Assembly: GCF_044324875.1 (NCBI RefSeq)
Contig: NZ_CP172185.1
Length of the DNA stretch: 64,000 bases
DNA from: Escherichia coli
GTDB lineage: Bacteria; Pseudomonadota; Gammaproteobacteria; Enterobacterales; Enterobacteriaceae
Reading direction: 5' to 3' (one strand)
Shown in pieces: positions 50,654-55,213 of the stretch. A program made the translations under genes and the position numbers. A model generated the notes under the pieces. It did no database searches, was not told the origin of the DNA, and saw nothing but the letters and a program-made list of their open reading frames with translations. Each line of letters begins with the position of its first letter. Position 1 is the stretch's first letter.

Positions 50654-51418
50654 TCAGAAATTAAATTTGATGGAGTAGATTATTGCATCCTGGTAAAAAT
50701 CTTCGCCCAGTTTGTCATCCGCATAACGATACTGAATTCCTGTGGTGATGTGTGAAGTTGCATTCCACCAAAGTGCGACGGCACCGTTCAGACCTTCTTT
50801 GCCGCCATTACCTGCCGCGTAGGTGGCATCACGATCAAACTCGTACTCGTTCCAGTTGGTGAGGGTGAATTTCTCACTGTCCAGCATAAAGCTGTAACCT
50901 GCAACCCAACCGGCGACATAACCGTTATCGCCGGTATAATAGGTTTGGTCTGTATAGCGTTTTGCAAAGAACGGTTTGAACCACCAACCGCTGCCGGTGA
51001 AATTGTAGCCGATACCGTACAGGAACATATCGTCGTGGAAATTCACGCGATTCGCAGAACCGTAGGTGCCATACGCATGCAAGTAGAAATTAAATCCGGT
51101 GTCACCCAGGTAAATACGGTTGGTATTTTTAAAGGTATAACGCTGCTCGCTACCTGGTTTATTATGGCGACCGTTATAGAAGTTTTCCCAGTCGAAGAAC
51201 CCGTACATTTCTCCCCAACTAAAGTTAGCGCCACCTTCAAATTCAAGATAACCAAAATCATCTTTGTGTGATTTGGTCGACGATTTTTCGGTAGTCCGGC
51301 TGGTCCAGTCCAGATAATGCACGCCGATATCTGCAAAACCGCCTTTAAATTCTGCATGAGATACTGCTGGTATCGCCAATACAGAAGAGAGTGTCAGAGT
51401 AAAAAGATGTTTTTTCAT
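50654..51418 (-). CDS. yfeN: Tsx/OmpK-family outer-membrane channel
   Basis: 254 aa with signal peptide; aromatic-rich beta-barrel-like sequence ending in F. Confidence 0.88.
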   Translation of the reverse strand: MKKHLFTLTLSSVLAIPAVSHAEFKGGFADIGVHYLDWTSRTTEKSSTKSHKDDFGYLEFEGGANFSWGEMYGFFDWENFYNGRHNKPGSEQRYTFKNTNRIYLGDTGFNFYLHAYGTYGSANRVNFHDDMFLYGIGYNFTGSGWWFKPFFAKRYTDQTYYTGDNGYVAGWVAGYSFMLDSEKFTLTNWNEYEFDRDATYAAGNGGKEGLNGAVALWWNATSHITTGIQYRYADDKLGEDFYQDAIIYSIKFNF

Positions 51419-51666: not shown

Positions 51667-52500
51667 ATGTATCAGGCTCGGTTTTCTCATAACCCACTGT
51701 ATTGCGTAGATATTATCAAGACTTATAAACCTGATTTCACGCCACGAGTGGCCTTTATTTTAGGTTCCGGGCTGGGCGCGCTGGCCGATCAGATTGAGAA
51801 CGCGGTCGCAATTTCCTACGAAAAGCTGCCTGGGTTCCCGGTAAGTACCGTACATGGCCATGCGGGTGAGCTGGTGCTGGGTTATCTCCAGGGGGTGCCA
51901 GTGGTGTGCATGAAAGGTCGCGGACATTTCTACGAAGGTCGTGGGATGACCATCATGACGGATGCAATCCGTACCTTTAAGTTGCTGGGCTGCGAGTTGC
52001 TGTTTAGCACCAATGCGGCTGGCTCACTGCGTCCTGAAGTGGGGGCCGGCAGTCTGGTCGCATTGAAAGATCACATCAACACCATGCCGGGAACGCCGAT
52101 GGTGGGTCTTAATGATGAACGTTTTGGTGAGCGCTTCTTCTCGCTGGCGAATGCCTACGATGCGGAATACCGCGCACTGTTACAAAAAGTGGCGAAAGAA
52201 GAGGGGTTCCCTCTGACGGAGGGCGTGTTCGTCTCGTATCCGGGTCCGAATTTCGAGACTGCGGCGGAAATTCGCATGATGCAAATTATTGGTGGGGATG
52301 TTGTTGGTATGTCTGTGGTGCCTGAGGTTATTTCTGCTCGCCATTGCGAACTTAAAGTCGTTGCGGTCTCTGCGATTACCAACATGGCGGAAGGTCTGAG
52401 TGACGTGAAGCTTTCTCATGCCCAAACGCTGGCAGCAGCGGAGCTCTCAAAGCAAAACTTTATTAATCTTATTTGCGGCTTTCTGCGCAAAATTGCCTGA
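51667..52500 (+). CDS. xapA: purine nucleoside phosphorylase II (xanthosine phosphorylase)
   Basis: 277 aa recognised as XapA. Confidence 0.93.
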   Translation: MYQARFSHNPLYCVDIIKTYKPDFTPRVAFILGSGLGALADQIENAVAISYEKLPGFPVSTVHGHAGELVLGYLQGVPVVCMKGRGHFYEGRGMTIMTDAIRTFKLLGCELLFSTNAAGSLRPEVGAGSLVALKDHINTMPGTPMVGLNDERFGERFFSLANAYDAEYRALLQKVAKEEGFPLTEGVFVSYPGPNFETAAEIRMMQIIGGDVVGMSVVPEVISARHCELKVVAVSAITNMAEGLSDVKLSHAQTLAAAELSKQNFINLICGFLRKIA

Positions 52501-52560
52501 GTAAAACAACAATAAACGGCCTCACTGAGTGAGGCCATATGATGCGACAAGGAAACGATT

Positions 52561-53817
52561 ATGAGCATCGCTTTGCGCTTAAAGGTAATGTCCTTTTTGC
52601 AATATTTTATCTGGGGGAGCTGGCTGGTTACCCTCGGTTCTTACATGATTAATACCCTTCATTTCACCGGCGCTAATGTTGGCATGGTTTACAGTTCCAA
52701 AGGGATCGCCGCGATTATTATGCCTGGTATAATGGGGATCATCGCAGACAAATGGCTGCGTGCAGAACGTGCATACATGCTGTGTCACCTGGTGTGTGCG
52801 GGCGTACTTTTTTATGCGGCATCCGTAACTGATCCGGATATGATGTTTTGGGTGATGTTAGTCAATGCGATGGCGTTTATGCCGACTATTGCGTTATCGA
52901 ACAGCGTCTCTTATTCCTGTCTTGCCCAGGCAGGGCTTGACCCGGTGACCGCTTTCCCGCCCATTCGCGTTTTTGGTACGGTGGGGTTCATTGTCGCCAT
53001 GTGGGCAGTAAGCCTGCTGCATCTGGAATTGAGTAGTCTGCAGCTGTATATCGCGTCCGGTGCGTCATTGCTGCTGTCGGCTTATGCGCTGACTTTGCCG
53101 AAGATTCCGGTTGCGGAGAAAAAAGCGACTACATCGCTTGCCAGCAAGCTGGGTCTGGATGCCTTCGTGCTGTTTAAAAATCCACGCATGGCTATCTTTT
53201 TCCTCTTCGCCATGATGCTGGGCGCGGTGCTGCAAATTACCAACGTTTTTGGCAACCCGTTCCTGCATGATTTCGCCCGTAATCCTGAGTTTGCTGACAG
53301 TTTTGTGGTGAAATATCCCTCCATTTTACTGTCAGTTTCACAGATGGCAGAAGTGGGCTTTATACTGACTATCCCATTCTTTTTAAAGCGATTTGGCATT
53401 AAAACCGTCATGCTGATGAGTATGGTGGCCGGGACGCTGCGCTTTGGCTTCTTCGCCTATGGCGATCCGTCAACAACCGGATTTATTTTGCTGCTGCTGT
53501 CGATGATTGTTTATGGCTGTGCATTCGATTTCTTCAATATTTCTGGTTCGGTATTTGTCGAACAGGAAGTTGATTCCAGCATTCGTGCCAGCGCGCAGGG
53601 CCTTTTTATGACGATGGTAAATGGCGTCGGCGCATGGGTTGGCTCGATTCTGAGCGGTATGGCAGTGGATTACTTCTCGGTGGATGGCGTAAAAGATTGG
53701 CATACCATTTGGCTGATGTTTGCAGGGTATGCTCTTTTCCTCGCAGTGATATTTTTCTTTGGGTTTAAATATAACCATGACCCTGAAAAGATAACGCATC
53801 GTTCAGTTACACATTAA
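52561..53817 (+). CDS. xapB: xanthosine MFS permease
   Basis: 418 aa, 12-TM-type hydrophobic protein; follows xapA. Confidence 0.93.
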   Translation: MSIALRLKVMSFLQYFIWGSWLVTLGSYMINTLHFTGANVGMVYSSKGIAAIIMPGIMGIIADKWLRAERAYMLCHLVCAGVLFYAASVTDPDMMFWVMLVNAMAFMPTIALSNSVSYSCLAQAGLDPVTAFPPIRVFGTVGFIVAMWAVSLLHLELSSLQLYIASGASLLLSAYALTLPKIPVAEKKATTSLASKLGLDAFVLFKNPRMAIFFLFAMMLGAVLQITNVFGNPFLHDFARNPEFADSFVVKYPSILLSVSQMAEVGFILTIPFFLKRFGIKTVMLMSMVAGTLRFGFFAYGDPSTTGFILLLLSMIVYGCAFDFFNISGSVFVEQEVDSSIRASAQGLFMTMVNGVGAWVGSILSGMAVDYFSVDGVKDWHTIWLMFAGYALFLAVIFFFGFKYNHDPEKITHRSVTH

Positions 53818-53869
53818 AAGGATTCGCAGCTCTGTTCCTTGGGGCTGCTTTTATGATAAAGGTTAATTA

Positions 53870-54028
53870 GTGAAAGATATTTTATTTTCTTCTGGCGTTG
53901 GTTTTGGCATTGGTGCTTTGTTTACAATCGTGCGCTTGCCTATTCCTGTACCAAATGTATTACCGGGTATATTATCCATTGTGTTTATGTATGTCGGATA
54001 TCTGGTGGTGAAATACTTTATGCCATGA
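53870..54028 (+). CDS. small hydrophobic membrane ORF (52 codons), XapX-like candidate
   Basis: GTG start at 53870 with aagg 7 nt upstream; translation VKDILFSSGVGFGIGALFTIVRLPIPVPNVLPGILSIVFMYVGYLVVKYFMP; below the ORF-track length cut-off. Confidence 0.5.
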   Translation: MKDILFSSGVGFGIGALFTIVRLPIPVPNVLPGILSIVFMYVGYLVVKYFMP

Positions 54029-54068
54029 TAATTTAATACGATGTATTTATTATATGGAGCACTTAATT

Positions 54069-54953
54069 ATGGAACGCGTATATAGAACAGATCTTAAGTT
54101 GCTCCGTTATTTTCTTGCCGTAGCGGAAGAGTTGCATTTTGGTCGCGCAGCAGCGCGTTTAAATATGTCTCAGCCTCCGCTCAGTATTCATATTAAAGAG
54201 CTGGAAAATCAACTCGGCACGCAGCTTTTTATTCGCCATTCGCGCAGCGTCGTACTGACACACGCGGGCAAAATCTTGATGGAAGAATCGCGTCGATTGC
54301 TGGTGAATGCAAATAATGTATTGGCTCGGGTTGAACAAATAGGTCGGGGAGAAGCAGGGCGGATTGAACTCGGGGTTGTGGGAACGGCATTGTGGGGACG
54401 GATGCGCCCGGTTATGCGGCGATTCCTCAGGGAAAATCCTAACGTTGACGTTCTTTTTCGCGAAAAGATGCCCGCGATGCAAATGGCCCTGCTGGAACGA
54501 CGTGAACTCGATGCCGGAATCTGGAGAATGGCGACAGAACCACCGGCAGGTTTTACCAGCTTACGGTTGCATGAATCGGCGTTTCTGGTGGCGATGCCTG
54601 AAGAGCATCATCTCTCATCATTTTCCACCGTTCCGCTGGAAGCGCTACGTGACGAGTATTTTGTTACAATGCCGCCCGTGTACACTGACTGGGATTTTTT
54701 GCAGCGAGTTTGCCAGCAGGTGGGATTTTCACCGGTTGTTATTCGCGAAGTTAATGAACCGCAAACGGTACTCGCCATGGTCAGTATGGGCATTGGTATC
54801 ACATTGATAGCGGACAGCTACGCACAAATGAACTGGCCAGGTGTCATTTTCCGTCCGCTCAAACAGCGCATCCCTGCAGATTTATATATTGTTTATGAAA
54901 CACAGCAGGTGACGCCCGCGATGGTTAAGCTGTTGGCTGCATTGACACAGTAG
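54069..54953 (+). CDS. xapR: LysR-family activator of xapAB
   Basis: Protein from MERVYRTDLKLLRYFLAVAEELHFGRAAARLNMSQPPLS recognised as XapR (294 aa); second in-frame ATG of track ORF. Confidence 0.92.
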   Translation: MERVYRTDLKLLRYFLAVAEELHFGRAAARLNMSQPPLSIHIKELENQLGTQLFIRHSRSVVLTHAGKILMEESRRLLVNANNVLARVEQIGRGEAGRIELGVVGTALWGRMRPVMRRFLRENPNVDVLFREKMPAMQMALLERRELDAGIWRMATEPPAGFTSLRLHESAFLVAMPEEHHLSSFSTVPLEALRDEYFVTMPPVYTDWDFLQRVCQQVGFSPVVIREVNEPQTVLAMVSMGIGITLIADSYAQMNWPGVIFRPLKQRIPADLYIVYETQQVTPAMVKLLAALTQ

Positions 54954-55018: not shown

Positions 55019-55078
55019 ATCGCAGATAGCAAAAAAGCGCCTTTAGGGCGCTTTTTTACATTGGTGGGTCGTGCAGGA
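55019..55078 (-). repeat. duplicated copy of the lysV terminator plus the last 17 nt of tRNA-Lys (tRNA 3' fragment)
   Basis: 60 bp identical to 55175..55234; contains tggtgggtcgtgcagga, the complement of the tRNA-Lys 3' end. Confidence 0.75.
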
Positions 55079-55184
55079 TGACTCGCTTCGCTCGCCCTTC
55101 GGGCCGTCGCCGCGAGCGGCTCCGTTGTTTCGCTGCGCTCAACTCGAACCTGCTGCAGGTTCGAATCTTTGAGTATCGCAGATA

Positions 55185-55213
55185 GCAAAAAAGCGCCTTT
55201 AGGGCGCTTTTTT
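55185..55213 (-). terminator. rho-independent terminator of the valU-valX-valY-lysV tRNA operon
   Basis: aaaaaagcgcc-ttta-gggcgctttttt hairpin immediately 3' of lysV. Confidence 0.75.

Follow-up and report, generated by a model that had tools for sequence, protein, structure and literature searches.

The gap between xapB and xapR in Escherichia coli almost certainly holds a genuine member of the XapX family, the gene xapX, whose 52-residue product is predicted to form a two-helix hairpin in the inner membrane. The explanation that best accounts for the evidence as a whole is that XapX is a membrane accessory in nucleoside uptake or catabolism, which we consider reasonably probable. A role in xanthosine transport or catabolism is a more tentative proposal, based on guilt by association. 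The xap operon is a model circuit on which a genetic switch has been modelled quantitatively (PMC7205307), and xapX is a fourth conserved xap gene that neither the reference K-12 annotation nor that model includes. Mutants designated ΔxapAB or ΔxapABR may lack it or may retain it, an ambiguity that could mislead their interpretation. If XapX affects nucleoside uptake, it would provide a first functional foothold for a family spread across bacteria, archaea, and viruses.

The window analysed is a 64,000-nucleotide stretch of E. coli contig NZ_CP172185.1. In it, the xapX coding sequence occupies positions 53870–54028 on the plus strand and runs over 52 codons from a GTG start to a TGA stop, as indicated by the ORF listing of the window, a match to the TIGR03510 model, and a PGAP CDS. 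The ORF listing gives its translation as MKDILFSSGVGFGIGALFTIVRLPIPVPNVLPGILSIVFMYVGYLVVKYFMP, a hydrophobic product with a GRAVY value of 1.31. The last nucleotide of xapB is 53817 and the first of xapR, as annotated by PGAP, is 54069, leaving a gap of 251 bp. A Shine-Dalgarno-like AAAGG, read directly from the sequence, is located at 53858–53862 on the plus strand, 7 nt upstream of the GTG; the coordinates, start codon, and ribosome-binding site that a preliminary description had claimed for an ORF in this gap were all recovered. At the equivalent place, a purine-rich motif (AAGG, GGAG, or AAGGAGG) is present in all 11 xapX orthologues compared. A longer ORF is impossible, since an in-frame TAA lies two codons upstream of the GTG. 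The GC content of the region is 38%, vs. 48–52% in its neighbours. Because the other frames of the window yield numerous spurious ORFs about as long as xapX, its length alone does not place it beyond chance, and it is conservation that makes the case.

A scan of one genome per species located xapX in Escherichia, Pseudocitrobacter, Entomohabitans, Phytobacter, Chimaeribacter, Citrobacter, Limnobaculum, and Pragia. The Enterobacterales loci compared comprise 11 genome-derived orthologues, three metagenome contigs, and one Salmonella record. In all 15, xapX lies between xapB and xapR, directly follows xapB, and is exactly 52 codons long. All orthologues share the position of the start codon, which is ATG or GTG, and contain neither frameshifts nor stops; the frame, whose conservation the preliminary description proposed to check, is kept across Enterobacterales. 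Pairwise dN/dS values are 0.05–0.14, with synonymous sites saturated or nearly so; the third codon position is variable in 46 of the 52 codons and the second in 10, and stops accumulate in the alternative frames of the orthologues. For the same genome pairs, the pN/pS ranges of xapX (0.08–0.27), XapB (0.08–0.21), and XapR (0.07–0.27) are indistinguishable. Judging from these substitution patterns, the amino acid sequence of XapX is under purifying selection as strong as that acting on XapB and XapR. In Limnobaculum and Pragia (Budviciaceae), xapX still directly follows xapB, but it is separated from xapR by a deoC gene that overlaps the xapX stop; xapX is thus linked to xapB rather than to xapR. 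Among 5426 complete E. coli genomes, xapAB is present in 4076, the junction in 4084, and xapR in 4088, and the three occur or are missing together, as a single unit. The xapAB loci of Vibrio and Shewanella are described as independent acquisitions (PMC2395238).

Several features of this variation are recorded here as separate observations. The entire xap locus (xapA, xapB, xapX, and xapR; 51667–54953) is missing from ~25% of complete E. coli genomes. Where the locus is present, xapAB is unusually divergent (90–95% identical to the window in 2,558 genomes), whereas xapX–xapR is 95–99% identical, and the break in identity near the 3′ end of xapB suggests a recombination boundary. IS1A deletions were found in two strains: RM14721 has lost part of yfeN, xapA, xapB, xapX, and the 5′ end of xapR (locus L022), and PK6 has lost xapA and most of xapB, with xapX and xapR intact (L115). 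The deoC of Limnobaculum allomyrinae (L011:5144-5949) is split into overlapping ORFs of 145 and 150 aa, each corresponding to half of the DeoC model, which points to a frameshift or pseudogene, or else to a faulty assembly.

Comparison of E. coli XapX with the NCBIfam model TIGR03510 (“XapX”) gave a score of 64.2 bits against a cutoff of 27.8 (E = 5.8e-18), with residues 4–50 aligned to profile positions 2–48 of 49. All 34 of the diverse relatives examined match the same model. Together with this score, the hydrophobic unit of ~50 residues, with two helices and a conserved proline-rich loop, and the position between xapB and xapR place XapX in the family, of which the xapX ORF is the namesake; the family is defined by sequence only. 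The XapX family that the preliminary description placed at the xap locus is therefore real, and the proposed comparison of the 52-aa translation with TIGRFAM and Pfam models succeeded for the former and not for the latter. No Pfam match was obtained for E. coli XapX at E ≤ 1, so the threshold of PF07235 (DUF1427) was not reached. Since 28 of the 34 relatives touch PF07235 weakly (best E = 1.6e-7), the tie of XapX to this family would run through family transitivity and not through a direct match. Typical DUF1427 members are longer (~70–90 aa, vs. 52 aa for XapX), and some apparently contain two XapX units. DUF1427 was described in 2005 as an uncharacterised predicted transmembrane family (PMC554113).

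The description of the ORF as unlisted is correct for the curated MG1655 record NC_000913.3, which has no feature in the xapB–xapR gap, but not for RefSeq, where PGAP places a CDS at identical coordinates (“DUF1427 family protein”, WP_000651752.1). This protein is annotated in ~4,060 of the 5,426 complete E. coli genomes, K-12 derivatives included, and its exact sequence occurs on at least 1000 contigs. PGAP names members of the family “XapX domain-containing protein” or “DUF1427 family protein”. As a sequence feature, xapX is already known, being catalogued by TIGRFAMs/NCBIfam in a curated HMM named after it and by PGAP in thousands of annotations. An Rfam search of positions 53500–54400 matched nothing, so the coding reading has no competitor among known RNA elements.

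The literature found on “XapX” and “DUF1427” consists of a gene-table mention and the 2005 domain survey, and no experimental data on translation or function were found. Ribosome profiling had been put forward as a source of support; the available portions of E. coli small-ORF profiling studies and of an intergenic small-gene catalogue for EHEC do not mention the locus. As far as the accessible text of such work indicates, E. coli small-protein screens aim at proteins of ≤50 aa, and induction of the xap operon requires xanthosine (PMC7205307). xapX has probably never been detected because its 52-aa product exceeds this size limit and because the operon is silent without xanthosine.

An AlphaFold2 model built on a 34-sequence alignment shows XapX as a helical hairpin with a mean pLDDT of 85, in agreement with the earlier expectation of a membrane peptide with one or two helices. 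The model consists of a helix at residues 2–20, a loop at 21–30 (RLPIPVPNVL), and a second helix at 31–50. Helix 1 carries a G11xxxG15 motif, the rigid loop contains an invariant PxPxP, and helix 2 contains small residues and G43; G11, G15, P24, P26, P28, and G43 show no or almost no variation across the 34 family members. Searches of the PDB by sequence profile and, with the AlphaFold2 model, by Foldseek matched no solved structure. Charged residues are few (K2/D3, R22, and K48), so the positive-inside rule leaves the topology unfixed. On this model, XapX would be a two-helix hairpin residing in the inner membrane.

The wider family, collected by an exhaustive profile search and a word-indexed search, comprises 77 representative clusters when grouped at 50% identity and no fewer than 767 when grouped at 90%, with members in Firmicutes, Actinomycetota, Alpha- and Betaproteobacteria, Bacteroidota, and archaea, among others. 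Nucleoside- and nucleotide-related contexts recur independently among these relatives. In Aeromonas caviae, the XapX-family gene (hereafter X) lies in the order nupC (CNT family)–X–deoC–deoA–deoB, and in an Enterobacterales metagenome-assembled genome it accompanies nupC, deoB, and deoD. In the haloarchaeon Halomarina, a nucleoside hydrolase gene overlaps X by 4 nt, and the same operon encodes components of an ECF transporter and another nucleoside hydrolase. On a single metagenome contig, a phosphoribosyltransferase gene overlaps X. The remaining contexts are heterogeneous, and include FMN reductase, isochorismatase/AsnC, IDO, and C26 peptidase/DJ-1 genes, or X alone.

Viral relatives are found in two settings. 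About 65 of 80 metagenome loci belong to one freshwater phage clade, which was counted as one independent context (loci L037-L113, e.g. L050:3-7210). There, X is part of a replication and nucleotide-metabolism module, with DNA polymerase, MazG-like pyrophosphatase, UvsX-like recombinase, resolvase, and Cas4-like nuclease genes as neighbours. In the Haloarcula tailed viruses HCTV-1 and HCTV-16, X is located between the polB/N-acyltransferase genes and the clamp loader gene. Gene 83 of HCTV-1 (L114:3992-4153, YP_008059644.1), labelled “hypothetical protein; XapX” by its depositors, encodes a single XapX domain of ~53 aa, like E. coli XapX, and is 44% identical to the freshwater-phage form; it differs from xapX in belonging to a viral replication module, between the family-B DNA polymerase/N-acyltransferase and the clamp loader, whereas xapX belongs to a catabolic operon. 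The spread of the family across domains and viruses with recurring nucleoside or nucleotide neighbours is a useful lead, not a demonstrated mechanism.

A further subfamily of 70–85 aa always adjoins an FmdA/AmdA-type amidase gene and is followed by a second, paralogous XapX gene of ~63 aa (9 loci, from Pandoraea, Cupriavidus, Afipia-like, metagenomic, and other sources). The amidase–XapX–XapX module is represented by loci L021, L026-L033, L054, L096, L106, and L111 (e.g. L030:2886-4434), and suggests that the tandem pair is a heterodimeric membrane partner of FmdA/AmdA-type amidases. No transporter gene was adjacent in 4 of the 5 contexts of this subfamily sampled first. The tandem paralogues and the two-domain forms suggest that the working unit of XapX is a dimer or a higher oligomer, with which the GxxxG motif fits. 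The two tandem genes are often followed by a gene for an AraC::FmdA fusion regulator.

In the window, xapX is flanked by the other xap genes. xapA (51667–52500, plus strand), identified by annotation and synteny, is the first gene of the operon and encodes xanthosine phosphorylase; xapB (52561–53817, plus strand; PGAP annotation), directly upstream of xapX, encodes a xanthosine/H+ symporter of the MFS (NHS family); and xapR (54069–54953, plus strand; annotation) encodes a LysR-type activator and begins 40 nt after the xapX stop. Divergent from xapA is yfeN (50654–51418, minus strand), which by PGAP annotation and synteny encodes an outer-membrane protein of the Tsx/OmpK family. PGAP names its product “nucleoside-specific channel-forming Tsx family protein” or OmpK. 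In most genera yfeN keeps its synteny with the xap genes, and together they may make up a complete nucleoside route from the outer membrane to the cytoplasm.

The ORF, its coding constraint, its family membership and synteny, the hairpin fold, and the recurring nucleoside contexts are shown by the data above; the membrane location, the transcript structure, the oligomeric state, and any effect on XapB are inferred. Inherited as one unit with xapA, xapB, and xapR, xapX would most likely be translated from xapAB read-through past the hairpin that follows xapB, or from a transcript shared with xapR, so that its product would be less abundant than XapB. At the membrane, XapX would most likely serve the uptake or catabolism of nucleosides, as a probably oligomeric accessory that supports or tunes XapB-dependent xanthosine use. 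For the idea in the preliminary description that XapX may modulate the adjacent transporter, the location of relatives beside nucleoside permeases of unrelated families offers indirect support. Small inner-membrane proteins that bind and tune transporters include AcrZ (with AcrB), KdpF (KdpABC), MgtS (MgtA), and SgrT (PtsG). XapX resembles these in its size class, its hydrophobic helices, and the position of its gene beside or within a transporter operon. They are mostly single-helix proteins of narrow phylogenetic range with demonstrated binding, whereas XapX is a predicted two-helix hairpin from a very broad family of bacteria, archaea, and viruses and has no sequence relation to them.

Some findings weigh against a close tie to XapB. 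Co-occurrence with one transporter family is not conserved, as the neighbours are MFS-NHS (XapB), CNT (NupC), or ECF transporters, or none at all, and the structural unrelatedness of these partners argues against a subunit specific to one transporter fold. Many XapX relatives have no transporter neighbour, among them those in amidase, FMN reductase, and viral replication settings. To our knowledge, the XapB paralogue NupG functions without an adjacent XapX gene. The retention of xapX and xapR in strain PK6 without xapA and most of xapB also counts against a XapB-linked role, although that deletion may be recent.

The main rival, which we rate nearly as likely as the XapB-linked role, is that the XapX hairpin is an autonomous membrane module independent of XapB: a small oligomeric channel, a transporter, or an anchor for soluble catabolic enzymes. 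Taken by itself, it is a possible reading that we judge somewhat unlikely. XapX would then handle a base or another small nitrogenous molecule itself, or tether XapA to the membrane. The occurrence of the domain with unrelated transporter classes, and in viruses with no transporter gene nearby, agrees with this proposal, as does the frequent placement of X directly after, and overlapping, genes for soluble enzymes (nucleoside hydrolase, FMN reductase, and phosphoribosyltransferase). Amidase-linked tandem copies and two-domain DUF1427 proteins of ~90 aa form a pattern typical of small multimeric membrane proteins, and the GxxxG motif and glycine-rich helices favour tight helix packing. Against it, a hairpin of ~18 plus ~16 hydrophobic residues is very small for a pore, and neither the PDB profile search nor Foldseek revealed homology to a known channel or solved structure. 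An AlphaFold2 model in which a 30-residue GS linker connected two hairpins, built with self-concatenated homologues, was not confident (pLDDT 41, pTM 0.30) and lent oligomerisation no support, and confidence within each hairpin collapsed too; nor do the various XapX contexts share a common substrate.

More speculatively, and with rather little expectation of being right, XapX hairpins might be a minimal and ancient membrane module for nucleoside and nucleobase traffic, acting as a self-assembling dimeric or oligomeric conduit or as a universal helper of MFS-NHS, CNT, and ECF transporters, and borrowed by phages and haloarchaeal viruses for the supply of replication precursors. The tandem and fused forms and the weak charge bias of the single-gene forms would then reflect homo- vs. 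heterodimers, possibly of dual topology.

Between xapB and xapX lies a terminator-like GC-rich hairpin followed by TTTTAT (53826–53854, plus strand), with a 9-bp stem and a 5-nt loop (53826–53848). It stands 15 nt upstream of the xapX start and folds at −13 kcal/mol. Ten of 11 genera have a hairpin at this place, though of differing sequence; the stems of the window and K-12 also differ, yet both pair. As the T-run is confined to Escherichia, Pseudocitrobacter, and Phytobacter, we do not read the hairpin as a universal terminator; it is a conserved structure between the two genes and a candidate partial terminator, reducing expression of what follows, or a candidate stabiliser of the 3′ end of the xapAB message.

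Downstream, the 40-nt spacer between xapX and xapR in E. coli carries the xapR Shine-Dalgarno sequence (GGAG) and is too short for a promoter and a 5′ UTR, so transcription of xapR probably begins within or upstream of xapX. A scan of the region for the sigma-70 consensus did not locate a promoter for xapR or xapX: four sigma-70-like sites were found where shuffled sequences led us to expect 6.5, and there is no enrichment. One weak match that overlaps the xapX stop (ATGATA-17-TATTAT, 54025–54053, plus strand; 9 of 12 consensus positions) is unconvincing as the xapR promoter, since its implied start site falls at or after the xapR Shine-Dalgarno sequence and such sites are no more frequent than in shuffles. 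The longest xapR ORF begins at ATG 54054 and encodes 299 aa, and PGAP and the curated K-12 annotation use ATG 54069 (294 aa); the GGAG at ~54056–54059 favours the latter.

This arrangement lends some plausibility to the alternative that xapX is a leader or upstream ORF whose translation itself controls xapR by translational coupling or attenuation, because xapX ends only 40 nt before xapR and xapR is probably transcribed through it. PMC7205307, citing Seeger 1995, also reports xapR to be constitutive at a low level. We nevertheless regard this alternative as improbable: a leader ORF would be expected to hold its position relative to the regulated gene while its peptide varies largely freely, whereas the XapX peptide is selected as strongly as XapB and XapR; the distance from xapX to xapR ranges between 40 and 119 nt across orthologous loci, and in Budviciaceae an entire deoC intervenes; and homologues occur in many loci without a LysR regulator, viruses included.

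Still less probable is that XapX is a phage-derived, holin-like or toxin-like membrane peptide unrelated to xanthosine metabolism. The presence of the family in a large freshwater phage clade and in haloarchaeal tailed viruses could be taken this way, as could weak Pfam matches among the 34 members to Phage_holin_3_3 (in 4, best E = 2.6e-4) and SpoVAB (in 10). However, the viral copies reside among polymerase, recombinase, resolvase, and clamp-loader genes and not in lysis cassettes, and E. coli XapX has no match to a holin model in PHROGs or Pfam; neither it nor the phage form matched any PHROG. No antitoxin or antisense feature is evident, Rfam gave no family, and stable vertical synteny in a catabolic operon across Enterobacterales is not toxin-like.

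That xapX is a chance ORF in an AT-rich spacer holding just the xapAB terminator and the xapR promoter is scarcely credible and is refuted by orthologue conservation, dN/dS, and pN/pS values equal to those of XapB and XapR: the low GC content, the abundance of spurious ORFs of similar length, the absence of a gene from the curated MG1655 record, and an RpoN-holoenzyme binding peak seen in vitro in the spacer (53818–54068; gSELEX, PMC8743547) would suit it, but not the fixed 52-codon length, the few non-synonymous against saturated synonymous changes, the stops in other frames, or the strong curated-HMM match and homologous family of at least 767 clusters. A search for the sigma-54 −24/−12 element found no convincing motif behind this peak; the best site has three mismatches and lies at 53911–53926, inside xapX, and window-wide counts are below those of shuffled sequences.

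Beyond xapR, PGAP annotates an “RtT sRNA” element at ~55062–55190 (L001:4363-4488), between xapR and the lysV-valYXU tRNA cluster, whose genes give rise to a series of repeated spurious ORFs in the ORF listing. Four PLSDB “plasmids” that carry xapX or relatives (NZ_CP134663.1, NZ_AP026896.1, NZ_OU015330.1, and CP061244.1) are megabase-sized or contain core chromosomal genes (yfeH-yfeR-yfeN-xap); they look like chromosomes, whole or in part, that were wrongly labelled.
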